Origin: Thermoplasmata archaeon
GTDB lineage: Archaea; Thermoplasmatota; Thermoplasmata; UBA10834
Direction of reading: 5' to 3'
Length of the DNA: 64,000 nt
Assembly (NCBI GenBank): GCA_041304525.1
Contig: JBFYNF010000045.1
Coordinates: 7,479 to 71,478 of the forward strand
In this document: in pieces, positions 18,218 to 37,351 of the stretch
How the letters are laid out: each line of letters opens with the position of its first letter
How positions within the stretch are numbered: the stretch's first letter is position 1
Notes under the pieces: model-generated
What the model saw: only the letters and a program-made list of their open reading frames with translations
The model's database searches: none
What the model was told of the DNA's origin: nothing
Made by a program: the position numbers and the translations under genes

Positions 18218-19450
18218 CTACCTCTGTGTGCGCTTGGCGGCCGACACGGCTGACAGGTAGTCCTCGATGCGCTTGATACGCATAGACACCTTGGCCACGT
18301 CGTTCGTCAGGGTACCGATCCTGAGGACCAGTTCGTCAGGAACCCTTGGCTCGGGGATTATCGGTATGTCGGGCATTCTGATGTTCTCGGCAATCGACCG
18401 CACCGTGGCGACCTCCTCGACCAGTTCTTCGAACCTGGCGGGGAGGTCGTCCTCGCCCTCCTCTTCCTCCGGGACCCGCAGAAGCTCGATTGTGCTCTTG
18501 AGAGCGGTCACTTCGTCGGCCAAATTCGCGACTGCCGACTGGGTGCCCGAATCCTTCGCAGGTGCATGAGAGGATGCGATAGCCTTGTCTATCTTCCTGT
18601 CCGTTGTGGCCAGTATGACACCGAGCCCCTTGGCGATCTTCTTGTCCAGCTCGATCTTGAAATCGTGGAGTTCTCCCCTCAGATGTTCCTGGACGTCCTC
18701 CAACTTCTCGCCTTGGAGCTTCACGTCCCTGAGCATCGTGGTGAGGTCCGACATGAGGGAGGATGCACCTGACAACGCCTCGAGGTCGTCAGGGTCGAGC
18801 TTACCGCCCGCTGAAGCGATGTTGCAGTGCCTGAGACCGTCGACCATCGCAAGCATGTCCACGGTCGGGCCGCTCCTCTGGACCGCCTGCCTGATCGGCT
18901 CCAATCGGGCCATGACAGTCTCGGCCATCTTCACGGGGTTCTTCGTCCATTCGCCCATGTTGCTGAGCTCGCTCATGGCCTTCTCAAGCTGACGAGTGGC
19001 GTCAACCATGTCCGAACTCTCGATAGCGCGTATGTCCCTAATCGCGTCGCGCCGTCCCTTGGCCACGGCGTCATCCACAGAGAAACCCTCGTGAGGATAC
19101 ACGGTCGCCAGGTAGGACACGCCGGACATCACCTTGCCCATCACGTATTCCCAGTCTTGGCTAGTGACGGCTATCGTCGGCCTCTCGGACTTCTCGAACA
19201 GTAGGCAGAAACTGTCGTTGGGCATGTAGCATGCCTCGATGGAGTAGGGATGGTTCTTGTAGAACACTGGCGGGTGTTCAGGGCTCTCGCTCTGGACTGC
19301 GCCCATATAGGCGCCCATGTATGCCCTCGCGTAATTCGCGAGGTCCACGTCGGTGGGCCCTTTGTCCCTGCGCCCGCTCGGTTCTGCGCTCATATCCGCA
19401 CCAGGCATTGTGTCAACCTGGCTCTCACATGCCGTACTTGCGAAAGGCAA
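18218..19450 (-). CDS. coiled-coil hypothetical protein (410 aa), co-directional with the upstream wHTH gene
   Basis: Long ORF with good codon bias. Central and C-terminal heptad-like Glu/Lys/Leu-rich segments. No recognised enzyme motif. Confidence 0.5.
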   Translation of the reverse strand: MPFASTACESQVDTMPGADMSAEPSGRRDKGPTDVDLANYARAYMGAYMGAVQSESPEHPPVFYKNHPYSIEACYMPNDSFCLLFEKSERPTIAVTSQDWEYVMGKVMSGVSYLATVYPHEGFSVDDAVAKGRRDAIRDIRAIESSDMVDATRQLEKAMSELSNMGEWTKNPVKMAETVMARLEPIRQAVQRSGPTVDMLAMVDGLRHCNIASAGGKLDPDDLEALSGASSLMSDLTTMLRDVKLQGEKLEDVQEHLRGELHDFKIELDKKIAKGLGVILATTDRKIDKAIASSHAPAKDSGTQSAVANLADEVTALKSTIELLRVPEEEEGEDDLPARFEELVEEVATVRSIAENIRMPDIPIIPEPRVPDELVLRIGTLTNDVAKVSMRIKRIEDYLSAVSAAKRTQR

Positions 19451-19549: not shown

Positions 19550-19930
19550 CTACACAGCAGCGGAGGCGATCCAGTCCTCGGACCACTTCACCTGGCCGGT
19601 CCTGAGTTCGAACTTCAGTCGCACCTTGCCGTCATCGAAGAATATCTGGGCGCGTCTGACCTGAGACAGATAGGTCCTTGTCCACTTGCCCTTCTGCGTG
19701 AGGACCTTACCCTCGCATTCCAGGAGTCCTTCTGAAAGGAGAGTGTTGACCCTCCTGTAACCCAGCGTGACTGGTATGTCCAGACGTTGGCACATGTCCT
19801 GGACGGTGCGCGGCCTGTCCCTCGAGTAGATGAGGATCTTGGCCGAGTACTCATCGACCAAGAGCTTGGACAGCTCGTACGCGTTCATCCCAGGTGGCCT
19901 CGACCTTGACAATTCTATGTCATCCGTCAT
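19550..19930 (-). CDS. small winged-HTH DNA-binding protein (candidate archaellum regulator, EarA-like by context)
   Basis: 126 aa; paralogous to the ORF at 20179-20547 (shared pattern DEY...IL.......R...ELA...DIP....YR....L...GL.E.EG..LT..GK). Sits divergently next to the archaellin genes. Confidence 0.55.
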   Translation of the reverse strand: MTDDIELSRSRPPGMNAYELSKLLVDEYSAKILIYSRDRPRTVQDMCQRLDIPVTLGYRRVNTLLSEGLLECEGKVLTQKGKWTRTYLSQVRRAQIFFDDGKVRLKFELRTGQVKWSEDWIASAAV

Positions 19931-20178
19931 AAACCATCTGGCTCAATTCCAAGCCGAGACAATCAGAGACGATACACCGCCCTATGAGACAGTTCTGACA
20001 GCAAGGAGTGAGGGACGTATCTGGCCGGCCTGAAAGGACGCCTGTGAGAAGTTCGTGTGATTCTCACCCGTTACAAACAAATCGTGAATTATATATATTG
20101 ACAAAATAGTACCCCTGGACAAGGGATGGGAATAAGCTCTAACTCCCCCCTAACGAGGGGATCCGAACGGCTACCGAA
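19931..20178. promoter_or_regulatory. divergent promoter region between the two wHTH genes (AT-rich, TTATATATAT box)
   Basis: Only markedly AT-rich stretch locally (aaatcgtgaattatatatattgacaaaatagt); lies between two divergently transcribed genes. Confidence 0.45.
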
Positions 20179-20547
20179 TTGGGCATCACAGCGGACGCTA
20201 AGAAGCTGAGTATCGCGCAGATACTCACAGACGAATACAACATGAACATCCTTGCAGCCACGAGCCACAAGGCCCGTAGCGCCAGGGAGCTTGCGTTCAT
20301 GTTCGATATACCACTCGCGAGCTGCTACAGGAAACTGAGGGAGCTCGGGACATCTGGTTTGATCGAGCAGGAAGGCAGCGAGCTCACATCGGATGGGAAG
20401 AGGTACAAGGTGTACCGCTCGATGATAGGGAGCGTGACGATGGTCTACGAGAAGGGCACTCTCCGCATGAAGGTGGACATGAACTTCAGGTCCGCCCCGC
20501 TCGAGATCATCCAGAATATGGCGTTGCCGAAGTCGAGAGAGTTCTGA
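20179..20547 (+). CDS. small winged-HTH DNA-binding protein, paralogue of 19550-19930
   Basis: TTG start in the track; 122 aa. Alignable over its whole length to the divergent neighbour. Followed by two hairpins (20566-20584; 20605-20630) and a T-tract. Confidence 0.55.
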   Translation: MGITADAKKLSIAQILTDEYNMNILAATSHKARSARELAFMFDIPLASCYRKLRELGTSGLIEQEGSELTSDGKRYKVYRSMIGSVTMVYEKGTLRMKVDMNFRSAPLEIIQNMALPKSREF

Positions 20548-20604
20548 TTCTGCGAGAAGATTGTGCCTGCGGAGCCTCCGCAGGAAACCTTTGCATAGTC
20601 ATGC

Positions 20605-20638
20605 CAGCATGTGCGGCCGGCGGCACATGCTGATTTTC
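20605..20638 (+). terminator. hairpin plus T-tract downstream of wHTH gene 2
   Basis: AGCATGTGC-GGCCGGCG-GCACATGCT (9-bp stem) followed by GATTTTCT. Confidence 0.4.
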
Positions 20639-20746
20639 TAAAAAGAGAATCACACCGGAACCGTCTTCTATTACACATGATAATCATTCATGGCTCTCAG
20701 GGGCGGAAGTAACGCTCCGCGCAGGGCAACGCTTGGACTATCCACA

Positions 20747-20769
20747 GGGCATGTAGACCTCCAAGGGAG
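20747..20769 (+). repeat. conserved 23-nt archaellin-upstream motif, copy 1 (ACTATCCACAGGGCATGTAGACC)
   Basis: Identical 23-mer recurs at 22208-22230 and, inverted, at 24218-24240; this copy is about 150 nt upstream of archaellin 1. Confidence 0.6.
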
Positions 20770-20919
20770 TGAGCTAGAACAACAACGAAGGCGGATAGGC
20801 CAGGCAGCGGATTCTGGACCCATGTCATAACGGCAGTGCTTCCTCACTACCGTCCTCCAATCCCATGGTCCCAGGACACGATGCCTAGCCTTCCCGCACA
20901 CACCACGGAGGTATGAGAA

Positions 20920-21534
20920 ATGAAGAAGATATCCAAACCCAGAAGGGTGCGGATGGGCGAAGAGGCCGAGATGGGGGTCGGGACATTGCTGATCTTCATC
21001 GCGATGATACTTGTCGCGGCGGTTGCCGCGGGGGTGCTCGTCCAGACCGCGTATGTACTACAGCAGCAGGCGGAGTCGACAGGAGATCAAGCACTGATGG
21101 AAGTGGCAACGGGATTCAGAATACTCGCGGCGTACGGGGTGACGAACCTATCGGTCCCTGAGGTGACCGACCTATACATCAAGATAACCTTGGCGGCAGG
21201 TAGCCCGGTCATCAACCTCGAGCACGTGATCATCGAGATCACGAACGGCGACAACGACGTTTCGCTGGCGTTCAATGTCACTGGCTCTGATGTGGATTAC
21301 TTCGGCGCGACACAGATCAGGGACACCTATCCCACGAACGACTGGACCACTGGCGAGCCGGGGATGACACAAGGCGACATCGCCCTCATCCACGTGAACC
21401 TTAGTGCGAACAGCCTCAGTCTGGCGTCGCAGCAGCAGGCGGACCTGTTGATCATCCCGAAGCACGGCATACCGACATACCTGTCGGTGGTTGCGCCGTC
21501 AGTGCTCTCGAACACCTACGAGAACCTCACCTAG
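20920..21534 (+). CDS. arlB: archaellin (FlaB/ArlB) 1
   Basis: Class III signal peptide ..EAEMG|[26 protein letters not shown] and archaellin core. RBS GGAGGT upstream. Confidence 0.85.
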   Translation: MKKISKPRRVRMGEEAEMGVGTLLIFIAMILVAAVAAGVLVQTAYVLQQQAESTGDQALMEVATGFRILAAYGVTNLSVPEVTDLYIKITLAAGSPVINLEHVIIEITNGDNDVSLAFNVTGSDVDYFGATQIRDTYPTNDWTTGEPGMTQGDIALIHVNLSANSLSLASQQQADLLIIPKHGIPTYLSVVAPSVLSNTYENLT

Positions 21535-21557
21535 AAGGCTTTGAAGGATGTGATTCC

Positions 21558-22019
21558 ATGAACGAGGACGGGGAAGCCGCGTTGGAAGTGATTTCGGTCG
21601 ATTCGAGGACCAACATCATCACGATGCGGTGGCTCTCGTTCCTCATGGACAAGATTGACCCTGAGGCATTGCCTGAGCTGTTCGTCTTCTACAAGAGGAT
21701 AGGGTGGCTGGGAACGCAGGCAGCCGCGTACATGTCTGCGTTGGCCGAAGGGGCGAAGCCCGAAGCGCCTTCTGAAGAGCAGGCGCTGATGGAAGAGGAC
21801 GTCGAAGACCACAACCTCCTGATAAGGAGAGGGACCGATTCCGGAAAGGAACCGATGGTGGAAGAGGTCGACTGGCGGCTGACGCCCGAGGACCACATCA
21901 AGTGCTGGATGTTCATGATGGAGATAGCCGGATTGGACGTCGATAGGAACACTTGGGTAGAGGTCGACGAGCGCATCAGCCGGTTCGAGAGAAGGCTCGC
22001 GGACTACTACAAGGTATGA
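21558..22019 (+). CDS. FlaD/E-family archaellum accessory protein (ArlE-like)
   Basis: Contains the Arch_fla_DE-type block TMRWLSFLMDKI. C-terminal HIKCWMFMMEIAGLDVDRNTWVEVDERISRFE is homologous to the C-terminus of the FlaC/D ORF at 25285-26442. Confidence 0.6.
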   Translation: MNEDGEAALEVISVDSRTNIITMRWLSFLMDKIDPEALPELFVFYKRIGWLGTQAAAYMSALAEGAKPEAPSEEQALMEEDVEDHNLLIRRGTDSGKEPMVEEVDWRLTPEDHIKCWMFMMEIAGLDVDRNTWVEVDERISRFERRLADYYKV

Positions 22020-22153
22020 TACTCTGTAGGTGCTCCGCCGCTGCGCTGAGAGAGGCAAACATACACACAGGGCATCCGAACGTACCTGGACCAGGCTTCG
22101 GCCAAACCCTTTACAATTCTGATTTTCTCCCGTGAAAATCACGGCTGGTCGCC

Positions 22154-22161
22154 TTATATAT
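22154..22161 (+). promoter_or_regulatory. candidate TATA box (TTATATAT) upstream of the giant archaellin gene
   Basis: AT-rich box about 45 nt upstream of motif copy 2 and about 205 nt upstream of the ATG; flanked by a duplicated ATATCAAC. Confidence 0.35.
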
Positions 22162-22202
22162 CAACGGCCCTGATTGAATATCAACAGCCTCCAACGCATC
22201 TC

Positions 22203-22230
22203 GAGGCACTATCCACAGGGCATGTAGACC
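22203..22230 (+). repeat. conserved archaellin-upstream motif, copy 2 (GAGGCACTATCCACAGGGCATGTAGACC)
   Basis: 28-nt version shared exactly with inverted copy 3; followed by the hairpin CTCGTCC-tca-GGACGAG and a GAGCTAG block also seen after copy 1. Confidence 0.6.
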
Positions 22231-22365
22231 GTAGGCTCTCGTCCTCAGGACGAGCTAGTAGGCAGGTCCGTAGGACCTGCCCATTCTGATAGTGTCCCAC
22301 GTTGGTGACCGCTGCAATCCGAACATAGCCACGTTCCATGCCCTCCAAACACGGAGAGGACTGGG

Positions 22366-24087
22366 ATGGGGCTTCGCAAGATCCGACAACTGAGGGCACA
22401 GGACGAAGAAGCCGATATCGGTATCGGTACTCTGATCATCTTCATCGCGATCGTACTAGTGGCGGCCATTGCGGCATCGCTCATACTGTACGCGGCCGCG
22501 CTGCTCCAGGAGCAGGCTGAGAGGACCGCGGACGACGCAGTATCGGAAGTGGCTGGTGGCCTGTCGGTCATCAACATAGCGGGTGACCGAAACCCGGACG
22601 GAGAAGCGTCGACGATAGTCTCGGGATACATGCCGGTGACTGACAACCATGCGCCCATCGGTGGAATACTATGGAATGTCACAGCCTCGACCGACGGGAC
22701 GTCAGTACTAGGGGTTGCCCTGAACTGGACCCCTGCGAACGATTTCGGGTCAGGGTTGTACGAGGAGATCGTGTACCGCACCTCCGTGTACGATCCCACC
22801 AACCCGGCCGTATTCAACGAACAGATCGCAAGGAACCGTCTCTTGACGCTCGACCAGCTGAACCCATCCATGGAGCTCGTCAGGCTCGGCGCGGGTTCCA
22901 GGTCTACCGTCCAATACACTGACTACACCGTTAGGGACGACAACTCGACCTCCTACGCCTACGCCATAGTGGGCGTGGACAGGGCGGGGAACGTCGTACT
23001 CTACACAGCCATCGACAGCTCCACCTCCACGGACGGCTCGTCGCATGACGAGGACCTCGTGCCGCCCTCCGGCGGCTCGATGACGAGCACTGCCAGGCCC
23101 GACGAATATTCAGTGGCGCTGTTCTGGGTGCCTGCGAGTGACGGCGCGAGCGGAATAGATGCTCAGAGGCTGTACAGGACCGAGGGGGCTGTGAGCTCTC
23201 TGCCTATAACCATCCAGGATGGAAGGACCGTGGTGACTGTCCCAGTCACGGTGACACTCTTGGAGGAGTTCAATTCCACCACATCGAGTCACGTCGACGC
23301 TCCCTCTGAGATCGGGGTGTACACGTACTTCATCGTGGTCCGAGACAACGCTGGGAACGAGGAGTTCATCGGCACCCTCAGTTACGACGCGCAGACGGTC
23401 GATTCGAACCCGCCCGAGAACGCAGGGTCGGTATCCGTCAGACAGGCCCCACAGTCAATGAACATATCCTGGACGGAGGCGACCGATGCGCAGACGGCTG
23501 TCTCTTCGTACCTGATCTTCAGGAGCACGAGTATCGGCACCCTTGACACGATTGAAGAGCTCATGACCATGGCGCCGTTGGCGGAGCTCGACTCGAGCGC
23601 CGGGAACTACTCCGACTACTCCGGTACGTCGGGCACGCTCTACTACTACGCAGTCGTGGCAGTCGATTCCGCCGGCAATTACGCTCAGTCCTCGATGCCA
23701 TCCAACACCATACAGATGATCGAGATCAAAGTCAAGACCGTCCCGGGAAGCAGGCCTGTGCAGTTCACGACCATGATGATCGAGATAACCGATGGCATGA
23801 CCGATGTCACCCTGAACTTCAACTCCGGTCAGTTGGGGGCCTCCGGCGCGACCGCCACCATGTTCTCCGCAGAGATCCTGAGGGATCCCGACAGCACCTT
23901 CGCCACCACATTCTCACTCTACGATGGTGCCCTAGTGAAGGTCTTCATCGACGCGGGCGAGATTGGATTGAGCCTGCATGCGGACTCGTCGTTCTCCCTC
24001 AAGTTCATACCGGCAATCGGGCAGCCGACCCTCGAGGAGTGCAGGATACCATACCTCGGTACGTATAGGTACGTAATACTCGTGTGA
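22366..24087 (+). CDS. arlB: giant archaellin (573 aa) with FN3/Ig-like central insert
   Basis: N-terminus ..EEADIG|IGTLIIFIAIVLVAAIAASLILYAA (class III). C-terminus IEIKVKTVPGSRPVQFTTMMIEITDG..VTLNFNSGQ matches the conserved archaellin C-domain. About 330 aa of FN3-like beta-repeats lie between. RBS GGAGAGGA. Confidence 0.75.
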   Translation: MGLRKIRQLRAQDEEADIGIGTLIIFIAIVLVAAIAASLILYAAALLQEQAERTADDAVSEVAGGLSVINIAGDRNPDGEASTIVSGYMPVTDNHAPIGGILWNVTASTDGTSVLGVALNWTPANDFGSGLYEEIVYRTSVYDPTNPAVFNEQIARNRLLTLDQLNPSMELVRLGAGSRSTVQYTDYTVRDDNSTSYAYAIVGVDRAGNVVLYTAIDSSTSTDGSSHDEDLVPPSGGSMTSTARPDEYSVALFWVPASDGASGIDAQRLYRTEGAVSSLPITIQDGRTVVTVPVTVTLLEEFNSTTSSHVDAPSEIGVYTYFIVVRDNAGNEEFIGTLSYDAQTVDSNPPENAGSVSVRQAPQSMNISWTEATDAQTAVSSYLIFRSTSIGTLDTIEELMTMAPLAELDSSAGNYSDYSGTSGTLYYYAVVAVDSAGNYAQSSMPSNTIQMIEIKVKTVPGSRPVQFTTMMIEITDGMTDVTLNFNSGQLGASGATATMFSAEILRDPDSTFATTFSLYDGALVKVFIDAGEIGLSLHADSSFSLKFIPAIGQPTLEECRIPYLGTYRYVILV

Positions 24088-24129
24088 TTCTTGGAAGCCA
24101 GTCGTCCCGGAATCAACGCGGAGCGAATC

Positions 24130-24158
24130 AGGGGTGAGAATCACCCCTAGTAATTTTT
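24130..24158 (+). terminator. hairpin plus T5 terminator after the giant archaellin
   Basis: AGGGGTGA-gaa-TCACCCCT followed by AGTAATTTTTCT. Confidence 0.55.
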
Positions 24159-24217
24159 CTGAATATTTGTATAATAATGTTTATGACTTGTCCTCTCGAT
24201 AGTAAGGGCTCGAGAGA

Positions 24218-24245
24218 GGTCTACATGCCCTGTGGATAGTGCCTC
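24218..24245 (-). repeat. conserved archaellin-upstream motif, copy 3 (inverted orientation)
   Basis: Reverse complement of 24218-24245 equals GAGGCACTATCCACAGGGCATGTAGACC. Adjacent hairpin CCTCTCGA..TCGAGAGAGG. Lies about 320 nt upstream of archaellin 3, downstream of an AT-rich box TTTGTATAATAATG (24166-24179). Confidence 0.6.
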
Positions 24246-24566
24246 TCAAGCCAACCTTGGGAGGCACATCTCTCTCACTCCCCGCTGTAGGGCACGGCGG
24301 TTGCCTCGGAGGTGAGGCGTGAGGACCTGGTAAACACGATTGACCTGGTTGCCGCCAGAATCGATTGATCGCCCCAGAGCAACGACGTGCCAAGTACGGG
24401 GTACAAAACCGTGTGTTTTGGACCTACATCGAGCAGAGGAAGCTCTCGATGTCCCGCCTGTGGCGGGGGAGCCAGGATCGGCTCTGACGATCCCCGCGCC
24501 GGCAGGTTCGCCGGTCGTCCCTCAGGTACGGAACCTGGGAAAGATGCGAGATTGGAGGAAGAAAGA

Positions 24567-25181
24567 ATGCAGAAACTAGCATGGAAGAAGAGGAAGATGG
24601 AAGAGGAAGGTGAGATGGGTGTTGGTACCCTTCTGATCTTCATCGCCATGATACTCGTAGCCGCTGTGGCCGCGGGTGTACTGGTTCAGACCGCATACAA
24701 GTTGCAGCAACAGGCTGAGAGCACCGGTAACGAGGCACTGCAGGACGTCGCCACGGGCTTCAAGGTCCTGACTGTCTGGGGAACCACGGGCACTGGTGGG
24801 AACATCACTGACGTGTACCTGAAGATCGCCCTTACGGCGGGCAGCCCCGGCATCAACCTTGCAGACGCCAAGATCGAGGTCATACAGACAATCGGCGGAA
24901 CCACTGCCTCTGAAGTGACCCTTGATTATGTGGACGGCGCGCCATCGGCATCGGCGTTCAACGCAACTGTGCTGAGGGACATGGCTCCGTCGACGACTGC
25001 CGCGATGATGACCTCTGGCGACATATTCCAGGTCCACCTTGACCTCGAGACGATGGTCATGGGTCTGGATGTCCAGGAGCAGCTCTCTGTGTTGCTGATG
25101 CCGAAGCACGGTGTCCCAACACTGTGTGAGATAACTGCGCCCTCGACGCTCGAGGCAAGCAGCGTGGTTGTCCTGAAGTAG
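24567..25181 (+). CDS. arlB: archaellin (FlaB/ArlB) 3
   Basis: [18 protein letters not shown]|[26 protein letters not shown]; near-identical signal and N-domain to archaellin 1. RBS GGAGGAAGAAAG. The track ORF starts further upstream (24387) without archaellin-like sequence. Confidence 0.85.
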
Positions 25182-25284
25182 AGACACAAGCCTCTGCGAA
25201 CCCGTCAGGGCATCACCAAACCCCTCCCTTTCTGGGAGGGGGATGGTGCCCTGACTAGAGAGCACGGGGAAATGGTGTAAGGAA

Positions 25285-26442
25285 ATGGCTGGCCTGTTCC
25301 GCAAGAAACCAGAGAAAGACGGTTCCTCCGCAAGAAGGAAGCTGAAAGGCTTCGAGGAGGGATTCGAAGAGGAGGCGGAAGAGGGGGCCTACGAGGAGAC
25401 TGAGACTAGCCAGAGAGCCGACAAACTCGTCAGCGCGGAAGATGAAGACTACTTGGGAGAGGACGAGGCCAGCGGCGCAGGTCTCGCAGGCGTCAAGGAG
25501 CTAAGCGAGCTCATGGGACGCCTGGAGGAGATCGAGGACAAGATGGGCCGGATCGACTCCGCTCTCACAACGGATCGGAACGAGAATGCCAAGGTCCGGG
25601 ACCGGCTCAATCAGATGGAACAGGACATCAGGAAGCTCCTTTCCGTCTACGAGGTCGTGTCCACCAAGTTCAACCCCTTCCTAGATGTCTCCGAGAAGAC
25701 CCCCCCACCTGTCCAGCCCCAACCGGCTGTGATGCCTGAGCCCGCTCCGTTCGCTCCAATCGAGCTGGACGGGGACATACCGGAGTTCCGGCCATATCAG
25801 GAAGGGGAAGTGGAGCCGCCCACCTTCAATGGCAAAGGGCCCAAGGCCAGCCGCGACGCCGCCCCGTGGGAGCCAGGGACGTCAACCGCTACCGTTGAGA
25901 CAGTGTTCTCCGGACCCAGGAGAGAGCCCCCACCGACACTCGACAAGACCTCGAAGGACGAGAAGTATGAAAGGCAGGTGAGAGCGTCCGCGAGGAGCAA
26001 ACACAACAAGAAGCCGCTCCTTGCGTACATCCCACACGACTACCTGACGCTGGTCCTCGTGATGCGCTGGATAGAGTTCCTGTTCGAGCGCGTGACCAGG
26101 GAAAGGATGTCGCTCGTGCTAGACTACTATGTCGATGTAGGATGGATCAGCGAGGACGTGAAATCAGAGATCATGTCCTACGCGCGCGGAGAAATGCAGG
26201 ATGTGACCAAGTACATGGGCCAAGAGGAGGTAAGGGAGGACGTGTTCCGCGACCTCCCGCCGCCGACAGCGGCCCCGTACAAGAAGGTCGAGGACTGGCG
26301 TCTGTCCGCAGACGACCACCTGAAGTCCCTGCTGTTCGTGCAGAAGATAGCCGGACTAGAGGTTGACAAGGACCGCCTTAACTCCCTCGAACAGAACATC
26401 TCCAAATTCAAGGAGAGTCTGGAGGGCTTTCATGGGGTTTAG
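25285..26442 (+). CDS. FlaC/FlaD-like archaellum accessory protein (N-terminal FlaC-type coiled coil, C-terminal FlaD/E domain)
   Basis: Coiled-coil block LEEIEDKMGRIDSALTTDRNENAKVRDRLNQMEQDIRKLLSVYEVVSTKFNPF is FlaC-like. C-terminus has LVLVMRWIEFLFERV and ..LLFVQKIAGLEVDKDRL homologous to the ArlE-like ORF. Confidence 0.7.
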   Translation: MAGLFRKKPEKDGSSARRKLKGFEEGFEEEAEEGAYEETETSQRADKLVSAEDEDYLGEDEASGAGLAGVKELSELMGRLEEIEDKMGRIDSALTTDRNENAKVRDRLNQMEQDIRKLLSVYEVVSTKFNPFLDVSEKTPPPVQPQPAVMPEPAPFAPIELDGDIPEFRPYQEGEVEPPTFNGKGPKASRDAAPWEPGTSTATVETVFSGPRREPPPTLDKTSKDEKYERQVRASARSKHNKKPLLAYIPHDYLTLVLVMRWIEFLFERVTRERMSLVLDYYVDVGWISEDVKSEIMSYARGEMQDVTKYMGQEEVREDVFRDLPPPTAAPYKKVEDWRLSADDHLKSLLFVQKIAGLEVDKDRLNSLEQNISKFKESLEGFHGV

Positions 26443-27622
26443 TGTCTCGGCTACAATGGCGATATTCTTCGCCGCCTTTCTAATCCTTTTTTCTATTCTT
26501 TATTCCTCTTTGAACGACGCCTTCGACTCTGTGTCGGAGTCGTTCGATGAGAAGTACGAATACATGAACGATCGACTCGATACGCAAGTGACGATACTCG
26601 ACGTCAGTTACCAGAGGGACTCAAACACCCTAGATATCAGGGTCCAGAACACTGGCAGCAAGGTCCTGGACATATCCAAGGTCGACCTGATTCTGGAAGG
26701 GGCCATCCCCACGTCGTTCAATAAGACCATCCAGGGGACGGACACAGAGGTTTGGCTCCCGACTGAGGTCCTCACGATCACTGTCGATGATCCCGATGTG
26801 TCATTCGAGACTGACCTCGACCCGCGCGCTTCGCTCACCAATGACGCCTCCCTGTCTGCCCCCTCGAATGTCTCCGTTGGAGAGAGCGTCTACGTCCTGG
26901 ATGGACAGGACATAGATGTCTTCACGCTCGGAGGTGTCTTCGATTTCACGATTACAGACTCATCAAACATGGTCTCGCCCTCTGACCTGAAAGTGTGGGG
27001 AGATTATCTCTACGTACTGGACGAGGGCACACACATCGATCGGTTCGGACTCGACGGGGCTTGGGTGGACCGGATAGTGAACGACACGACGAACTCGTCC
27101 ATCCTGACCTCATTCAGCGTCGATTCCGAGTACATATACATCATAGACAACAGGAGCCACATCGACCGGTATGGCCTGGCCACAGGAATATTCGTGGACT
27201 CGATTGTGCCGAACGGAGGCACGATGACATCGCCGCGAGACATCTTCGTCAGCTCGCACATCTTCGTGATCGACTACAGTTCGGGATACCATGTTGACGT
27301 GTACGAGCTGGACGGCAGCGGAGGGACGGAGTTAGTCGGCACGGTAGGGCTCTCGTCGCCAACGGATATCTGTGCCAGCGCGAACGGCCTGGACGACGTG
27401 TATGTGTATGTCGTCAACGGATCGAGCGAGGTGGCCGTGTTCAACGCAACGGGGTCGCCCGTGGACATAGTCGACAGCCTGCTGAGCGACTCTGTGATCG
27501 CCGTAGACGTCACAGGCAAGATGTATGTCTCTGACAATGTGAATGGACTCGTCGTGGAGAACCTGGGTACTAACATCAAAGTGGTGGTAGAGAATGGAAT
27601 CTCATGTGTCACAGTGCAATAG
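26432..27622 (+). CDS. FlaF (ArlF)-like protein fused to a C-terminal NHL-repeat beta-propeller
   Basis: N-terminus MGFSVSATMAIFFAAFLILFSILYSS and the following beta-sandwich match FlaF. From about residue 170, five or six repeats of the type YVLDGQDIDVF / YVLDEGTHIDRFGLDG / YIIDNRSHIDRYGL / FVIDYSSGYHVDVYELDG / YVVNGSSEVAVFNATG are NHL-like. Confidence 0.65.
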   Translation: MGFSVSATMAIFFAAFLILFSILYSSLNDAFDSVSESFDEKYEYMNDRLDTQVTILDVSYQRDSNTLDIRVQNTGSKVLDISKVDLILEGAIPTSFNKTIQGTDTEVWLPTEVLTITVDDPDVSFETDLDPRASLTNDASLSAPSNVSVGESVYVLDGQDIDVFTLGGVFDFTITDSSNMVSPSDLKVWGDYLYVLDEGTHIDRFGLDGAWVDRIVNDTTNSSILTSFSVDSEYIYIIDNRSHIDRYGLATGIFVDSIVPNGGTMTSPRDIFVSSHIFVIDYSSGYHVDVYELDGSGGTELVGTVGLSSPTDICASANGLDDVYVYVVNGSSEVAVFNATGSPVDIVDSLLSDSVIAVDVTGKMYVSDNVNGLVVENLGTNIKVVVENGISCVTVQ

Positions 27623-27625
27623 GAG

Positions 27626-28072
27626 GTGGAGATGATGGGCGCAAGCGGAGCATCGACTCAGCTGATATTCTTCATATCCGCGTTGATCGTGGCAACGGCA
27701 GTAGTCGCCGTGGCCGCCAACGGGGTGTCCAAGATAACCAACGGGATAGACCAGAAGAGCGATAATGTGGAGAAGGATCTGCTGACGGACATTTCGATAA
27801 TAAACGACCCTGACGAGATCCCGAACGACCCTGTCAGGATATATGTCAAGAACGTGGGCAAGACCGTCCTGAACCAAAACTATATCACAGTAATGCTGGA
27901 TGGGTTTGCGGTCACGAACTACACGCTGACGCTGAGCGGGAGCACGTTGTCCTACTGGGACCCCGCGAGCATGCTGACGATATCAATAGACCAGAATTTG
28001 GCAGAGGGGGACCATTCGGTACAGGTGACCACCGAGAACGGCGTCTCTGACAAGCTCAGCTTCCGCATATGA
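27626..28072 (+). CDS. FlaG (ArlG)-like protein
   Basis: Hydrophobic N-terminus QLIFFISALIVATAVVAVAANG followed by a beta-sandwich domain; position between FlaF and FlaH. ATG at 27632 with AGGAGGTGG RBS is the likely true start. Confidence 0.7.
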   Translation: MEMMGASGASTQLIFFISALIVATAVVAVAANGVSKITNGIDQKSDNVEKDLLTDISIINDPDEIPNDPVRIYVKNVGKTVLNQNYITVMLDGFAVTNYTLTLSGSTLSYWDPASMLTISIDQNLAEGDHSVQVTTENGVSDKLSFRI

Positions 28073-28076
28073 CGGG

Positions 28077-28787
28077 GTGAACCCTCCAATGGGGGAGACC
28101 TACAAGCTACAGATACCCAGAGACGACCTACATGACCAGCTAGGTCAGGGCCTCCCCGCGGGAACGATAACGTTGGTCGAGGGAGCGCATGGGACCGGAA
28201 AAAGCGCCCTCGTCCAGCGGATGATCTACGGATTCCTTTCGAACCAACACTCGGTAACGTGCATATCGACGGAGCTGACCGTCAGGGACTTCATCAACCA
28301 GATGTACTCGCTCGACTACCCCATATCCTCATGGCTCCTGAACGGGAAACTGAAGTTCGTGCCTGTGTACCCACTCGTGGGCAAGGCCAGGAAGAGGAGC
28401 GACTTCCTGGGCATGCTGATGGGCTCCGAGGAACTGTACAAGAGTGACATCATGATCATAGATACCTTCTCCAGCCTCGTCAGCAACAGCCTTCATGGGG
28501 AAGACAACAGCATAGGTGTGCTGTCATTCTTCAAGAGACTCACCGGCATGGGTAAGAGCATCGTGGTGACAGTGGACCCGACTGAACTGGACCCTAAGGC
28601 GCTCGCACCGTTCGAGTCGGACAGTCACGTGTATTTGAGCATAATCGTGTCACAGGTCGGCGGGATGATATCCAGGAGCATCATGGTGAAGCGGTTCGGT
28701 GGCACCGAGTACAGGGTGTCCCCGGTCGTGGGCTTCAGGATAGAGCCTAATGTGGGCATGGTCATCGAGATCACATCAGTCGTGTGA
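28077..28787 (+). CDS. arlH: FlaH (ArlH) KaiC/RecA-like ATPase
   Basis: Walker A LVEGAHGTGKSALV and RecA-like core. Conserved operon position before FlaI. Confidence 0.8.
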   Translation: MNPPMGETYKLQIPRDDLHDQLGQGLPAGTITLVEGAHGTGKSALVQRMIYGFLSNQHSVTCISTELTVRDFINQMYSLDYPISSWLLNGKLKFVPVYPLVGKARKRSDFLGMLMGSEELYKSDIMIIDTFSSLVSNSLHGEDNSIGVLSFFKRLTGMGKSIVVTVDPTELDPKALAPFESDSHVYLSIIVSQVGGMISRSIMVKRFGGTEYRVSPVVGFRIEPNVGMVIEITSVV

Positions 28788-28797
28788 GGTCACGGTC

Positions 28798-30429
28798 ATG
28801 GCGGCGAAGTTCAGCAAGGTCCTGGAACGGAATCCCCACCTGAACGTCTATCTTCAGAGATACGCTCAGGAGACAAACCAGTCGCCGAAGTTCATGGACA
28901 CACTGGGCAGGGATCTCGGGAAGGAGGCGACCGTGGATGTCATCTACCCTGTCGGCGACCCGATATTCATACACCTGCACGGCTCCAAGGACACCGGGCA
29001 CAAGTACGATGTCGTGCAGCCAATGATGGAGGACGAGCTTGGCAAAGCGTACGAGAAGGTCGTCAATAATGTCTTCTTGAAGTCAGGGAAGGAGAAGATC
29101 CACTCGACCGATGAGGAGTTCAACGAGGTCCTGGACAAGCTCCTGAACGAAATAGTCGAGGTCACAGAGAGACGCATCCCCTCGAAGGTCGTACAGCTGT
29201 TCAAACCCAACTCCAAGATCTACGTCACCCCAGATGACTACAGCATCCTGGAGTACTACGTCAAGAGGAACATCCTCCAGAACGGCATCCTCGAACCGAT
29301 ACTCAGGGACCCGTACATAGAGGACATCCACTGCGTCGGCGTCAGGGAGGTGAACCTGTACCACAAGATCCTGGGCATGGTGGAGACGAACATCAAGTTC
29401 TCGAACGTCTCAGACCTGGACAAGTACACCAAGGGGATGAGTGAAAGGATGGGTCGTCCCGCATCGATATCGAGACCGATCATCGACGGCGCCCTCCCGG
29501 ACGGTTCCCGTATCAACATCATCTACGCTGACGACGTGAGCGTCAACGGGCCGACATTCACCATCAGGAAGTTCTCAGCGGAGCCGCTGAGTGCCGCTCA
29601 ACTCTCTGGATGGAACACTGTCTCCGCGCAGGAGGCCGCATACCTCTGGCTCTGTCTCGAGAACGGCATGAGCGTGTTCGTCTGCGGTGAGACCGCCTCA
29701 GGTAAGACGACCCTGCTCAACGCCATATTCCCGTTCATAAGGTACGACCAGAAGATATTCTCGGCTGAGGACACCCTGGAGGTGCAGCCGCCTCACGCCG
29801 TCTGGCAACAATTATCCACAAGGGAGTTCGGCCCGGAGGAGAGCAAGGTGGACACCTTCGCCCTCCTGAGAGCTGGACTCAGGTCCAGACCCAACTACAT
29901 CATCGTGGGTGAGATCAGAGGGAAGGAAGGGAACGTCGCGTTCCAGGCGATGCAGACTGGCATCCCGGTCATGGCGACATTCCACGCCGCCTCCGTCAAG
30001 AGGATGATACAGAGGTTCACCGGCGCCCCGATCAGCGTGCCCATCACGAGCATGGACAACCTCAACGTGGCGGTCTTCCAGGCGGGCGTATACAGGAACG
30101 GGAAGTTGATCAGGAGGACCCTGTCCATCGAGGAGATACTGGGCTACAGCGAGTCGATGGGCGGAGTGATGACCAGGGCAGTCTTCGTATGGAACCCGGT
30201 GAGCGACCAGCACATATTCCGAGGGATGAACAACTCGTTCATACTGGAGGAAAGGATCGCCGTCAAGAGGGGGTACAAGGACAAGAGGGACATATACAAG
30301 GAACTCGCCCTCAGGACCAGGATCATCGAGAAGATGGTCGAGACGAACATGACCTCCTACAAGACAGTCAACGACATCCTCAAGGCATTTCAGAAGGAGG
30401 GAGTGGCCGGCCTGCCGTTCACGGTCTGA
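28798..30429 (+). CDS. arlI: FlaI (ArlI) archaellum assembly/motor ATPase, copy 1
   Basis: Secretion ATPase of the type II/IV family: Walker A VCGETASGKTT and Walker B/His box. N-terminus MAAKFSKVLERNPHL. Confidence 0.9.
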   Translation: MAAKFSKVLERNPHLNVYLQRYAQETNQSPKFMDTLGRDLGKEATVDVIYPVGDPIFIHLHGSKDTGHKYDVVQPMMEDELGKAYEKVVNNVFLKSGKEKIHSTDEEFNEVLDKLLNEIVEVTERRIPSKVVQLFKPNSKIYVTPDDYSILEYYVKRNILQNGILEPILRDPYIEDIHCVGVREVNLYHKILGMVETNIKFSNVSDLDKYTKGMSERMGRPASISRPIIDGALPDGSRINIIYADDVSVNGPTFTIRKFSAEPLSAAQLSGWNTVSAQEAAYLWLCLENGMSVFVCGETASGKTTLLNAIFPFIRYDQKIFSAEDTLEVQPPHAVWQQLSTREFGPEESKVDTFALLRAGLRSRPNYIIVGEIRGKEGNVAFQAMQTGIPVMATFHAASVKRMIQRFTGAPISVPITSMDNLNVAVFQAGVYRNGKLIRRTLSIEEILGYSESMGGVMTRAVFVWNPVSDQHIFRGMNNSFILEERIAVKRGYKDKRDIYKELALRTRIIEKMVETNMTSYKTVNDILKAFQKEGVAGLPFTV

Positions 30430-30443
30430 TCCGCGTTTGCTGG

Positions 30444-30509
30444 CACTGATAGTCAGGCCTGAGAATTGGGCGCCAACCCTTATTACTTCAGGTTCTGGAT
30501 TGGCCTTTG
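30444..30509 (+). promoter_or_regulatory. conserved promoter/start module A (shared with 34185-34252): TGATAGTCAGGC..GAGAATTG.GCGCCAA.CCTTAT, about 22 nt, then start codon and GCCACCG
   Basis: About 36 of 41 nt identical to the element before the surface-protein gene. Same spacing (22-24 nt) from the TTAT(T/G)A box to a start codon (TTG 30507), consistent with a BRE/TATA and leaderless start. Confidence 0.5.
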
Positions 30510-30608
30510 AGGCCACCGAGCGCAGGCTCCACAGGGCTACCTCCGCCCAAGGGTGCGGCATTGGCTCTGCTCAGGAGCCGCTTGAGGCGCCTCAGCGGAT
30601 GGGTGAGG

Positions 30609-32258
30609 ATGCCTGCAGACGAAGCTGGCCTGAAGAAGGCCATGAGGAAGAACCCGCACCTCCTTGAATACGTCCAGGAGTTCGTCAGCAGACACAGGTC
30701 GCCTCCAGAGTTCCACCCCGTGGTCGAACGCAAGATGGGGGACGAGCAGCAGGTCAACGTGATCTACCCGATAGGCGACCCGCTCTTTGTCCATGTGTTC
30801 TCGACAGATAGCATACCCATCAGCTACAAGTCCGTGCAGCCGCCGATGACGCCGGACCTGCAGCCCAAGTACAGAAAGGTCATCCAACAGGTCTACAACA
30901 AGGCCGTCTACATGGACCCGCACGAATCTGTGGAGGAGTTCGAGAAGAATCTCCTGCAGCTGATAGACGCCTCGACAAAGATCTCCGAGAGCAGCACGGA
31001 TGGCGACGGCAAACGCATCTTCGGCGACCTTTTCACGGAGCCAAAGATATTCGTCACCCAGCACGAGCAAGACCTGATCAAATACCATGCGAAGCTGGCG
31101 ATTGTGCTAGCAGGACCCCTTGAGCCACTCCTCAGAGACCCGTACATCGAAGATATCCACTGCATCGGACACGACAACGTCTCCATCGTCCACAAGATAT
31201 TCCAGGCGATGCCGACCGATGTGAAGTTCGAGTCGATGGAGGAACTCGACAACTATGTTCGGGCCTTGAGCGAGAGGATAGGCAGGCCGGCGTCGATGGC
31301 TAGGCCGATAGTGGACGGTACGCTTCCTGACGGGTCACGTATCAACCTCATCTACGCTGACGATGTGAGCGTCAAAGGCCCCAGCTTCTCCATCAGGAAG
31401 TTCGCCGAGGAACCTATAAGCATAACCCACCTGATCGAATGGAACACCATCAGCGCCCAGGAAGCCGCCTACATATGGCTCTGCCTGGAAGAAGGCATGA
31501 GCATATTCTTCTGCGGGGAGACGGCGTCGGGCAAGACGACGACCATGGGCGCGGCCCTCCCATTCATCAAGTACGACAGCAAGGTCTACACGGCCGAGGA
31601 CACCATCGAGATGCAGGTTCCACACAAGGTGTGGCAGAGGTTGGCAACGCGGGACTTCGGCCCTGAGGAGAGCAGGGTCGACACGTTCTCACTGCTCAAG
31701 GCCGCTCTAAGATCGAGACCGAACTTCATCATAGTCGGAGAGATTAGGGGCAAGGAAGGGAGCGTTGCGTTCCAGGCCATGCAAACGGGCCACCCCGTCC
31801 TGTCCACGTTCCACGCGGCATCGACGAGGAAGCTCATACAGAGATTCACCAGCGACCCCATCAATGTGCCCATCACGTTCATAGACAACCTGAATGTCGC
31901 GTTCTTCCAGGCAGGCGTGTACAGGGAAGGTAAATTCCTGAGACGGACGATGTTCATTGATGAGATCGTCGGGTACAACGAAGCGCTAGGCGGGATCATG
32001 ACCCGGACCATCTTCCTGTGGAACGCCGCGGACGACTCTCACATGTTCAAGGGGATGAACAACTCCTACATCCTCGAGGAGAAGATTGCGGTCAAGAGGG
32101 GCTACAGTGACAAGAGGAAGATATACGGTGACCTGGCCCTCAGGACCAAGATACTCGAAGAGATGGTCTCCAGGAAGATATTCAAGTACGAGAAGGTGGC
32201 GGAGATAACCAAGGAGTTCCAGAAGAAGGGGGTGAGCGGCCTACCGTTCCCCGTGTAG
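30609..32258 (+). CDS. arlI: FlaI (ArlI)-family ATPase, copy 2 (tandem paralogue)
   Basis: About 60-65% identical to copy 1 over the ATPase core (GRPASMARPIVDGTLPDGSRINLIYADDVSV...CGETASGKTT). ATG 30609 aligns with the copy-1 N-terminus. An in-frame TTG at 30507 adds 34 Arg/Pro-rich residues and sits at the conserved promoter-module spacing, so the true start may be 30507. Confidence 0.85.
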   Translation: MPADEAGLKKAMRKNPHLLEYVQEFVSRHRSPPEFHPVVERKMGDEQQVNVIYPIGDPLFVHVFSTDSIPISYKSVQPPMTPDLQPKYRKVIQQVYNKAVYMDPHESVEEFEKNLLQLIDASTKISESSTDGDGKRIFGDLFTEPKIFVTQHEQDLIKYHAKLAIVLAGPLEPLLRDPYIEDIHCIGHDNVSIVHKIFQAMPTDVKFESMEELDNYVRALSERIGRPASMARPIVDGTLPDGSRINLIYADDVSVKGPSFSIRKFAEEPISITHLIEWNTISAQEAAYIWLCLEEGMSIFFCGETASGKTTTMGAALPFIKYDSKVYTAEDTIEMQVPHKVWQRLATRDFGPEESRVDTFSLLKAALRSRPNFIIVGEIRGKEGSVAFQAMQTGHPVLSTFHAASTRKLIQRFTSDPINVPITFIDNLNVAFFQAGVYREGKFLRRTMFIDEIVGYNEALGGIMTRTIFLWNAADDSHMFKGMNNSYILEEKIAVKRGYSDKRKIYGDLALRTKILEEMVSRKIFKYEKVAEITKEFQKKGVSGLPFPV

Positions 32259-32265
32259 GTCCTCC

Positions 32266-34184: not shown

Positions 34185-34252
34185 ACATGATAGTCAGGCG
34201 CGAGAATTGAGCGCCAAACCTTATGAGTGGATAGACCTGATTTTGACATATG
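34185..34252 (+). promoter_or_regulatory. conserved promoter/start module B (paralogue of 30444-30509)
   Basis: CACATGATAGTCAGGCGCGAGAATTGAGCGCCAAACCTTATGAG, then 24 nt, then ATGGCCACCG (start of the 1033-aa surface protein). Contains the internal GGCGC..GCGCC inverted repeat. Confidence 0.5.
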
Positions 34253-37200: not shown

Positions 37201-37351
37201 CGGCGCAGCAGTGGCCGTCGTGGTCCTCGTCGTGTTCCTGATACTCAGGAAGAGGAGGGCAGAGGAGGTCGCAAGGGAGGAGGAGCGGCGGAAGATGCAG
37301 GCAAGGAAGAGGCCTCCGGGGCCCCCGAGGGTCAAACCGAAAGCGCCGTGA
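34250..37351 (+). CDS. large cell-surface protein: signal peptide, six-bladed beta-propeller-like repeats, CARDB-like and several Ig-like domains, C-terminal TM anchor with basic tail
   Basis: Six repeats of the type D.DG..H(I/V)VW.D.R.G..DIYY. Segment ..VTVAVDPDQTVRETFETNNQQS matches the CARDB E.nE.NN end. Many N-x-S/T sequons. End is WVILIIVGAAVAVVVLVVFLILRKRR. Confidence 0.7.
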   Translation: MATVSRTALTSTMLVVLLLPMTLMVLLQGPPAPSAHAFPIDDFGSSIRLTFDQAISTNVSSSVDDDGNIHVVWEDYRSGAGDIYYMKLDDEGNKLTNDAKISNDTTASRNPSVAADSDGHIYIVWEDVDNGSSELLFAKLWYYEGNITFQENGLQVSDSDPANSTEPDIAVCQDGNLSLVWTDARHDAGDGNLEIYYKRLRMSGTSLTPDTRVTGDVGRSEHPRLDTDSDGMVHIVWYDFRDSSNGLVINHGVFYRKVIMDGTPLTPETRITFASPQSRPDIAIDTDGNVHVVFDDDRYASFDIFYTLLDPDGNTLVDDRNISPKDDNESRCPRIALSDSNAVDVVWQDQTSGLWAIHYSAMNYNGEIEVYDQGLTSETVGNATIPVAMCANDNNTLVMYVGDYPNMEVFFSRTHRPDPAVLAGGISMSSTQPLIGTTVWVNATVWNLEGDALTDLAVRLMVDSVAVEDATVAYLVAGHSTVVSFSHTASEGETIVTVAVDPDQTVRETFETNNQQSAPMLVRTPGVVLTSDVSSQSAEPDETAIFNITITNEGNTAFSFCLSNSEPESGWIIDLGGSPEGIYTVPAGSSAVATVEVTVPEDETPGARAFSVLATCVERDSVNDSVTLMVDVVRFGELTVVSSDGGDVEPTIPELYTFTVSNSANANETFAVSASDLLGWDLVASHDELELAPGEEAEVSVLVTPARYDPPGTLNTLTLTLSSMNLTWNTVEGNLLMIVGHHWEVDAKLTQQAFLNMSVPDEREVRYILDVTNLGNSDDVFRLSLSGIDAFWATLNTTYVFLGAGDEQQVYISLTPGVDVLAGAYPFNVTVVSESDDNATETLEMGVSVLPFYDISVSAEFAQVSLRRGETAFVNLTVRNTGNSADVVDLYAYVGALNTTTATFVGEVVSLETGDPILIALEPGGSATIMLTIPVPGDVEIGLQDLCMDFSSMTDPSVMASQTVSVLVEDDPSWFTLWVILIIVGAAVAVVVLVVFLILRKRRAEEVAREEERRKMQARKRPPGPPRVKPKAP

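Follow-up and report, generated by a model that had tools for sequence, protein, structure and literature searches.

Archaella have long been viewed as thin filaments built from uniform subunits of about 200 amino acids (aa). The first structure of a sheathed archaellum, that of Haloarcula marismortui, dates from 2026 (PMC13357602). Its archaellins ArlA2 and ArlB have about 450 aa and form sheathed archaella of 20 nm (PDB 9XTB/9V96 and 9V95), in which a pair of antiparallel linkers connects an outer domain, D2, to the head and D2 forms an outer proteinaceous layer (PMC13357602). According to the same paper, several groups of archaea have large archaellins with outer domains, the role of which was left open by the authors (PMC13357602). 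The present analysis deals with a 573 aa archaellin encoded in a 64,000 nucleotide (nt) stretch of a Thermoplasmata archaeon (contig JBFYNF010000045.1, positions 7,479 to 71,478), which in its full length is called the window here. The middle of this protein is predicted to consist of three fibronectin type III (FN3) domains set into the archaellin head, and its gene is flanked by two archaellin genes of ordinary size, arlB1 and arlB3. While large archaellins as such have already been described (PMC13357602), the FN3 domain type, the insertion site, and the occurrence in Thermoplasmatota are new. A literature search, which had the supplement of the Haloarcula paper outside its coverage, found no paper combining archaellin with fibronectin type III.

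Judged by its sequence, the long open reading frame is a genuine archaellin paralogue. A first-pass annotation, made by reading the letters of the window, had recognised a class III signal peptide and an archaellin N-terminal helix at its start, and both withstood comparison with reference data. The Pfam family Arch_flagellin (PF01917) matched residues 17–87 only, with 57.2 bits at a cutoff of 29.5, and archaellin models of NCBIfam matched the protein as well. In a profile alignment two solved archaellins, 7OFQ_B and 8RH5_Z, have the first residue of their mature chains opposite residue 17. Cleavage is predicted between alanine 16 and aspartate 17, with the expected glycine at position +3, charged residues at positions −2 and −3, and alanine rather than glycine at position −1. 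The helix, 47% identical to that of the short archaellins, marks the long protein as a divergent paralogue; the arlB1 and arlB3 proteins are nearly identical to each other in the helix and share 49% identity overall.

BLASTP of the long protein against these two neighbours yielded two separate blocks. The first comprised residues 1–76 with 47% identity, the second paired residues 454–565 with residues 87–192 of the short archaellins at 28–33% identity and an expectation value (E) of about 1e-7. A global MAFFT alignment scattered the C-terminus of the long protein and proved misleading. Since the flanking archaellins pair with the two end blocks only, and 573 minus 204 leaves 369 residues, the extra segment has a length of about 370 aa (residues ~77–450) and not of about 330 aa as first estimated. 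Both flanking archaellins have 204 aa when counted from their ATG starts, so that of the 204 and 205 aa originally given for them the former figure stands. A middle made of ordinary archaellin sequence, which the annotation had named as a way in which its proposal might fail, is ruled out by the restriction of the neighbours to residues 1–76 and 454–565. A complete archaellin is obtained when residues 1–62 (leader and helix), 63–76 (strand beta1), and 447–573 are combined. The family profile matched the solved archaellins 7OFQ, 5Z1L, 5O4U, and 8RH5, with the heads of 7OFQ_B and 5Z1L in the same order, and a Foldseek comparison of the structural model with the PDB returned 7OFQ_B with a root mean square deviation of 1.9 Å over 154 columns, as well as 5Z1L, 5YA6, and 8RH5, at a probability of 1.0. 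An archaellin head is present, interrupted by the insert after its first strand.

The AlphaFold2 model was calculated from 34 orthologues and reached a mean predicted local distance difference test score of 80.6 and a predicted template modelling score (pTM) of 0.58. It yielded a helix at residues 19–62, strand beta1 at 66–74, three beta-sandwich units at about 96–225, 238–343, and 344–446, and the return of the head at about residue 451. Residues ~77–450 are, according to this model, three tandem FN3-type beta-sandwich domains. The best PDB matches found by Foldseek were tandems of three and four FNIII domains (gp130, fibronectin, neogenin, contactin, and titin) with a probability of 1.0, the family profile matched the FN3 domains of neogenin with an E of 2e-6, and multi-FN3 proteins aligned by the thousands to profile positions 194–450. 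Each of the three units carries the signatures of FN3 domains, a tryptophan in an early strand and a Y-x-Y-x-V-x-x-D-x-x-G-N motif near the end. The window protein missed the Pfam cutoffs, with 16.7 bits against 25 for fn3 (PF00041) and 20.4 against 27 for Big_13, so its membership in PF00041 is backed by the fold and not by a curated score; P0153, a more distant member of the family, clears the fn3 cutoff with 42.6 bits. Pfam, BLASTP, AlphaFold2, profile search, and Foldseek thus agree on what had been proposed from the letters, an archaellin whose conserved N- and C-terminal parts are separated by an FN3/Ig-like insertion, and modelling of the beta-rich middle resolved it into three FN3-like units.

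The site of the insertion had to be corrected. Archaellin parts do occur at both ends, as proposed, but the insert does not separate two domains; it is located inside the head domain, in the loop after strand beta1. The junction GDR..DG (G73, D74, R75, and G79) is invariant in all clades of long archaellins and is not found in short ones, and the chain returns to the head with the sequence IQ(M/V)(I/L)E(I/L)K at about residue 447. Judged by the sequence and by the secondary structure in the AlphaFold2 model, the insert would exit at about residue 76 and return at about residue 447, which corresponds to an extra globular module joined by two antiparallel linkers.

The multiple N-x-S/T sequons noticed earlier in the middle of the protein amount to six, all of them within residues 104–414. 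Across the 34 orthologues the insert has 3–6 sequons (mean 4.9) and the head a mean of 0.09, with N104, N120, N193, and N303 each kept in at least 30 of the 34 proteins. The short archaellins of the same loci have a mean of 3.7. As the sequons are concentrated in the insert and nearly absent from the head, the simplest interpretation makes the FN3 module an exposed glycosylated surface which covers the head. Decoration of the filament surface by the insert is a reasonable assumption in the light of this distribution; the adhesion or host interaction suggested for it in the first-pass annotation is hypothetical.

A word-indexed search of 5.8 billion proteins retrieved about 35 orthologue clusters with 49–93% identity, all from Thermoplasmata-type metagenome-assembled genomes (MAGs) and nearly all with a length of 571–578 aa. 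The architecture is kept together with this length in the orthologous loci. Archaellin lengths in 75 related genomic and metagenomic loci are sharply bimodal, with 100 proteins at 195–231 aa, 13 at 571–573 aa, and 2 at 647–649 aa; a 620 aa gene call in locus L005 has an over-extended start, its true length being 573 aa. The 647 aa relative has 29% identity and keeps the layout of the long archaellin. An exhaustive profile search in 1.84 billion representatives, the output of which was dominated by giant multi-FN3 proteins, added further full-length relatives of 539–745 aa (P0050, P0051, P0065, P0067, P0073, P0083, P0107, and P0153), all of them with an archaellin N-terminus and the same layout. 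P0050 is an annotated "archaeal flagellin" (WP_015282609) of Aciduliprofundum sp. MAR08-339, which has a closed genome of 1.44 Mb, and A. boonei T469 has a homologue of 546 aa, ABOONEI_32. Aciduliprofundum belongs to the DHVE2 group of the Thermoplasmatota, and since the family reaches this genus with the same layout the insertion is regarded as old and stably inherited. In locus L002 (10132–10327; MAG UBA9653) the match to the long archaellin is broken, with residues 45–63 unmatched over about 195 nt, possibly because letters are masked there or the assembly is locally faulty; the NCBI entry for the 18,348-bp contig of UBA9653 lists a 510 aa "partial" protein.

The mean pairwise identity within the family is 0.86 for the helix, 0.70 for the first FN3 domain, equal to the 0.70 of the head, and about 0.55 for the second and third. 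Invariant positions are numerous throughout the insert, which is under clear purifying selection. This degree of conservation does not go together with the analogy to hypervariable D2/D3 domains of bacterial flagellin that had been drawn at first. From the bimodal lengths it follows that the long size is a conserved property and not due to chance or a frameshift fusion. A fusion artefact of a frameshifted assembly had been considered by the first-pass annotation itself; together with a decaying pseudogene, such an artefact now has a practically negligible probability, as the same length and architecture recur in dozens of independent assemblies (some 35 clusters), in the Aciduliprofundum homologues and in the closed genome of a cultured strain, and as invariant positions run all through the insert.

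What the protein does may be outlined as follows. With a probability of roughly 0.5, it polymerises like any archaellin, giving thick filaments or long filament stretches whose outer layer consists of glycosylated FN3 domains; it would serve next to the two 204 aa archaellins, either as an alternative subunit or by co-polymerising with them. The prepilin-type peptidase would remove the 16-residue leader, and the arl machinery would polymerise the protein through its hydrophobic helix to an archaellum-type filament. Since exit and return of the insert share a single point of the head, the three FN3 domains should double back and extend outward, where they would constitute a glycosylated sheath or a dense decoration over a core of about 10 nm, covering the head. 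For a homopolymer, a volume estimate based on 41 kDa per 5.5 Å rise and a packing of about 0.7 predicts a filament width of at least about 17 nm, near that of the 20-nm Haloarcula filaments. Expression would occur from the gene's own promoter via a structured leader, a 28-nt motif of which is complementary to the arlB3 leader.

Five points weigh against this proposal. The arrangement of the domains relative to each other is uncertain in the AlphaFold2 model, given its pTM of 0.58. The insert enters near the hinge between helix and head, and bulk added there might disturb packing. The operon's two canonical archaellins might suffice for the entire filament. In Aciduliprofundum the gene for the long archaellin is solitary and lies outside any arl operon. 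Finally, the archaella of A. boonei have been described with hooks (PMC10117864), and no report of an unusual thickness was found.

These hooks lead to another possible, if more tentative, role. The long protein may be a minor, position-specific archaellin such as that of a hook, with the FN3 domains thickening or stiffening this segment or letting it touch the envelope, and with the 204 aa archaellins building the filament proper. A. boonei, with its 546 aa homologue, is among the few archaea with reported "very elegant hooks" (PMC10117864), which so far is a correlation only between hook and gene. In methanococci the hook is made by a divergent minor archaellin, and hooks can exceed the thickness of the filament (PMC10117864); the long protein is the divergent paralogue among the archaellins of its operon, and its gene has a separate promoter and leader control. 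A 573 aa subunit is also costly, which argues for a low copy number, as the Haloarcula authors reasoned likewise (PMC13357602). The loss of sequons from the head, on the other hand, suggests a consistent cover by neighbouring FN3 modules, as would be expected in long homopolymeric stretches more than for subunits standing singly.

A further explanation, quite unlikely, takes the protein out of the archaellum altogether. It would be a type-IV-pilin-like adhesin or a separate fibre which uses the archaellin part as an assembly handle only, displayed at the membrane or envelope or assembled by a partly separate machine from paralogous ArlI, ArlD/E-like, and KaiC-like parts. Arrays of FN3 domains are characteristic of surface proteins and adhesins, and the solitary Aciduliprofundum gene away from the arl genes would suit such a role. 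The protein nevertheless keeps a full archaellin head at 0.70 identity, which a mere anchor would not need, and most lineages have the gene within the arl operon, flanked by archaellin genes on both sides.

The accessory genes bear on the same question. The long gene of the window is placed inside a complete archaellum operon, and the synteny holds in about 17 loci. An extra ArlD/E-like gene stands directly upstream of it in every locus of the window's clade, as a conserved gene pair; in locus L020 the ArlD/E-like gene is placed after the long gene instead. The operon contains two full-length paralogues of the motor ATPase ArlI with 55.5% mutual identity. Two ArlI copies are found in every sufficiently extended operon with a long gene, the duplication being present also in L001, L004, and L005, and a single ArlI in three of the four loci without a long gene. 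The fourth of these loci, L022, has two copies, and a strict coupling of ArlI duplication and long gene is therefore rejected. The two ArlI paralogues and the extra ArlD/E-like gene in operons with the long gene would be in line with a partly separate machine, against which stands the duplication in L022, a locus without the long gene. In L005/L016, L020, and Aciduliprofundum, i.e., in three lineages, the long gene is accompanied by a KaiC-like ATPase of its own (235–257 aa) and by a protein of about 120–150 aa, a linkage which would also favour a separate fibre. Between these lineages the ATPase is 38–43% and the small protein 33–40% identical, and BLAST of the two against the operon's ArlH gave no match at an E of 1e-3. 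Neither the window nor the flanks of L004, L007, L009, and L011 contain the module.

Another peculiarity of the operon is the stator protein ArlF. ArlF usually has about 140 aa. In the window it has 419 aa, with the ArlF domain followed by six repeats which look like those of a beta-propeller; no Pfam family matched this tail. The C-terminal extension was detected only in loci which carry the long archaellin.

Upstream of the long gene an alignment of 13 orthologous loci revealed three nearly invariant elements, the dyad TGATTTTC-N5-TGAAAATCA, the TATA-like box TTATATAT, which is nearly invariant in 11 of the 13 loci, and the 28-nt motif. The gene has a conserved promoter-like block of its own, which presumably acts as a promoter, and GA(A/G)AATCA boxes of like kind occur upstream of arlB1 and arlB3. 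Of the independent regulation claimed for the gene from its TATA-like box and terminator, the part concerning the promoter stood, with dyad and TATA box conserved, and the terminator did not. A terminator-like hairpin at 24130–24148 followed by T5 (whole site 24130–24157) is located downstream of the gene, but five such sites were found where 2.9 ± 1.9 are expected in shuffled sequences, which is no enrichment, and the hairpin is not kept in other loci. The conserved part there is the GCGAATCA..TGAGAATCA box pair of the arlB3 promoter region.

The putatively transcribed region between the promoter-like block and the start codon is predicted to form a structured 5' leader. Its closing stem would be formed by the 5' part of the motif with GATAGTG and would enclose two internal hairpins, one of them covarying. 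The motif, or the GTCCCATGCCCTC block, would pair with the region of the Shine-Dalgarno sequence and the AUG, the motif doing so at the adjacent CAUGCCCU/GGGAU blocks. RNAalifold identified 9 pairs with compensatory changes, at a minimum free energy z-score of −3.3. For the arlB3 leader a consensus fold of −40 kcal/mol with a z-score of −3.1 was obtained. The hairpin which the reverse-complemented motif forms in the arlB3 leader works in that orientation only, because it depends on G·U pairs, and clade-specific substitutions keep it intact. The covariance models of Rfam 15 detected nothing relevant over 19900–25400 at E ≤ 1.

The motif occurs three times in the window in a length of 25–28 nt, in archaellin leaders only. 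Each copy is placed at a similar distance past an AT-rich box, within a conserved leader behaving like structured RNA. The second and third copies form a perfect 28-nt inverted repeat which brackets the long gene with 1987 nt between the arms, where 0 are expected by chance. Across loci at 62–93% protein identity the arms vary by 0–1 mismatch (over 22 nt at 62–66%), and in the L005/L016 clade, at 51% identity, the same two substitutions are found in both arms, which there enclose a larger cassette of long gene, KaiC-like ATPase, and a 150 aa gene. As a general mark of long-archaellin genes the inverted repeat was rejected, as it is missing from L020/L021 and Aciduliprofundum.

Perfect, conserved arms of this kind, with shared substitutions and with a cassette of variable size between them, could suggest recombination sites, so that the long gene would lie on an invertible on/off segment subject to phase variation. 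This is very unlikely. The other orientation was seen in 0 of about 17 assembled loci from independent assemblies, no recombinase domain was found among the open reading frames scanned from 15.1 to 41.3 kb, and the copies sit in a conserved, covarying RNA structure at a similar distance past the AT-rich box. Furthermore, judging by the layout, an inversion would remove the promoters from the long gene and arlB3 instead of swapping them. L003, first suspected to be a rearranged junction contig, proved on inspection to be ordinary: it carries the 3' half of the gene, then the motif and the beginning of arlB3.

As the leaders are structured and about 17 loci gave no evidence of inversion, a role of the motif as RNA element or operator is likelier than DNA inversion. 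It could be an operator for two conserved upstream winged helix-turn-helix (HTH) proteins, or it could mediate a sense/antisense interaction between leaders. The genes of the two HTH proteins are small, paralogous (30% identical), and divergent, at 19550–19930 (−) and 20179–20547 (+) just upstream of the operon. They are conserved in almost every related locus; L020, too, has a pair. Their products are candidate regulators at the GA(A/G)AATCA dyads (GAAAATCA) before each archaellin TATA box. A specific RNA switch may be formulated as well, though it is rather unlikely: the sense copy in the arlB1 and long-gene leaders would pair with its own initiation region, the hairpin in the arlB3 leader would show the exact complement, and the mRNAs of canonical and FN3 archaellins would thereby regulate one another in trans, at the level of translation or stability. 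If true, a novel form of mRNA-mRNA regulation in archaea would be at hand, linked with a second kind of archaellum, and the switch together with the paralogous ArlI, ArlD/E-like, and KaiC-like parts would allow the cell to reprogramme surface and thickness of its motility filament.

Table 1. Positions of the features of the long archaellin gene, its leader elements, and its operon. Positions refer to the window unless another locus is named.
Feature	Position	Strand	Basis or remark
Long archaellin gene, 573 aa + stop codon	22366–24087	+	ATG start, open reading frame list
Class III signal peptide, residues 1–16 (MGLRKIRQLRAQDEEA)	22366–22413	+	Alignment to solved mature N-termini
Hydrophobic N-terminal alpha-helix, filament-core element, residues 17–62	22414–22551	+	AlphaFold2 helix 19–62; 47% identity to neighbours
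Head strand beta1 (residues 63–76) and outgoing linker (77–95)	22552–22650	+	AlphaFold2 strand 66–74
FN3-like domain 1, residues 96–225, helical excursion 148–157; conserved sequons N104, N120, N193	22651–23040	+	AlphaFold2, Foldseek
Acidic/Pro-Gly interdomain linker, residues 226–237 (DEDL.PP.GG)	23041–23076	+	D228, E229, D230, P234, G236, G237 invariant
FN3-like domain 2, residues 238–343, conserved sequon N303	23077–23394	+	Big_13 weak, AlphaFold2, Foldseek, neogenin FN3 profile match
FN3-like domain 3, residues 344–446, and return linker	23395–23703	+	fn3 weak, AlphaFold2, Foldseek, profile search
Remaining archaellin beta-sandwich head, residues 447–573, zero sequons	23704–24084	+	BLASTP, profile, Foldseek
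Promoter-like block of long gene: dyad (22120–22141), then TATA-like box (22154–22161)	22120–22161	+	13-locus alignment
Putative structured 5' leader of long gene	22186–22365	+	RNAalifold, minimum free energy z-score; start site predicted
Motif copy 1, 25-nt direct copy upstream of arlB1	20737–20761	+	More degenerate in other loci
Motif copy 2 (GAGGCACTATCCACAGGGCATGTAGACC), left arm	22203–22230	+	~42 nt past TATA box, 135 nt before ATG
Motif copy 3, reverse complement, right arm	24218–24245	−	131 nt past stop codon, ~322 nt before arlB3 ATG, in conserved structured leader
arlB1, canonical archaellin, 204 aa	20920–21534	+	Open reading frame, Pfam, NCBIfam
Extra ArlD/E-like gene, 153 aa	21558–22019	+	Pfam Arch_fla_DE; 27% identity to ArlCDE C-terminal domain
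arlB3, canonical archaellin, 204 aa	24567–25181	+	Open reading frame, Pfam, NCBIfam, BLASTP
arlC/D/E fusion, arlF, arlG, arlH, two arlI paralogues, arlJ	25285–33927	+	Pfam, NCBIfam
arlC/D/E fusion	25285–26442	+	Part of archaellum operon
ArlF stator protein, 419 aa	26363–27622	+	ArlF domain, then six ~42-residue repeats ([VIL][YF][VI]x[DN]...G)
Tandem ArlI/FlaI motor ATPases	28750–30429 and 30507–32258	+	725 and 709 bits; NCBIfam equivalog cutoff 550
KaiC-like ATPase and small protein module	L005 7341–8572; L016 7794–8980; L020 1142–2171; L076 9630–9989 and 10820–11527		

Two further genes frame the operon. Directly 3' of arlJ a 1033 aa protein is encoded at 34250–37351 (+), with matches to CARDB, NPCBM-associated, and FixG_C Ig-like domains and weak ones to BNR and glycosyl hydrolase 43; it is probably a large surface protein and may or may not be tied to the archaellum. 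On the other side a 410 aa reading frame at 18218–19450 (−) gave zero significant family matches. A gene of 365–377 aa without a family match occurs at the same place beside the HTH genes in L004 and L005.

As the architecture is stable over deep divergence, a real function can be assumed for the long archaellin rather than an oddity of single genomes. Homologues are present in the cultured strains A. boonei T469 and MAR08-339, and hooks have been reported for A. boonei, so the role of large archaellins has become directly testable. The archaellin genes are tied together by the conserved leader element. This motif, along with the ArlI duplication and the KaiC-like module linked to the long gene, offers a concrete way into the question of how archaea select their filament subunits.

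Among described systems, Natrialba magadii ArlB3, cited in PMC10117864, is an archaellin paralogue likewise enlarged by a long insertion in its middle and encoded among archaellins of normal size; it is a haloarchaeal protein, and its insert may or may not be related to the FN3 domains. Bacterial flagellins with their D2/D3 domains and outer-domain sheaths resemble the long archaellin in having a conserved polymerising core and an outward inserted module which sets the surface. They belong to an unrelated protein family with an unrelated assembly system, and their outer domains are typically hypervariable, in contrast to the conserved FN3 insert. ArlB3 of Methanococcus voltae and M. maripaludis, the hook-forming minor archaellin, is like the long protein a divergent paralogue beside major archaellins. 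Its role is a specialised structural one, its protein has no inserted multi-domain module, and a hook role of the FN3 archaellin is a hypothesis drawn by analogy. ArlB of Oxyplasma meridianum (PDB 8RH5; PMC12448462) also stems from the Thermoplasmatota and shares a long leader peptide and heavy N-glycosylation. A lineage-specific insertion alters its filament surface and yields barbs and a width of 13 nm (PMC12448462). This insertion is a spike of 28 residues, loop and helix, in the product of a single archaellin gene, whereas the long archaellin carries 370 residues of folded domains.

The closest comparison is that with ArlA2 and ArlB of Haloarcula. Both these proteins and the long archaellin have an intact helix and head and an extra globular module in the head whose chain exits and returns at one point, and both fit the idea of large archaellins as special-purpose subunits. 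The inserts have no sequence relation, and the family profile reaches 9V96 and 9V95 over the N-terminal ~110 residues only. D2 is a bi-lobed beta-sandwich without a clear structural homologue, as opposed to three FN3 domains in the long archaellin. It enters after about residue 134, residues 13–137 of a short archaellin aligning without gaps to residues 9–134 of ArlA2, and the FN3 insert after about residue 76. The Haloarcula proteins have no N-glycosylation sequons, while the outer module of the long archaellin has 3–6. The lineages differ too, Halobacteria in one case and Thermoplasmatota in the other. Homology of the insert to D2 is ruled out by profile reach, fold, and insertion site. As fold and insertion site differ, the long archaellin is considered an independent variant: the same solution would have arisen a second time in the Thermoplasmatota, with a trio of FN3 domains, another insertion site, and glycosylation shifted to the outer module.

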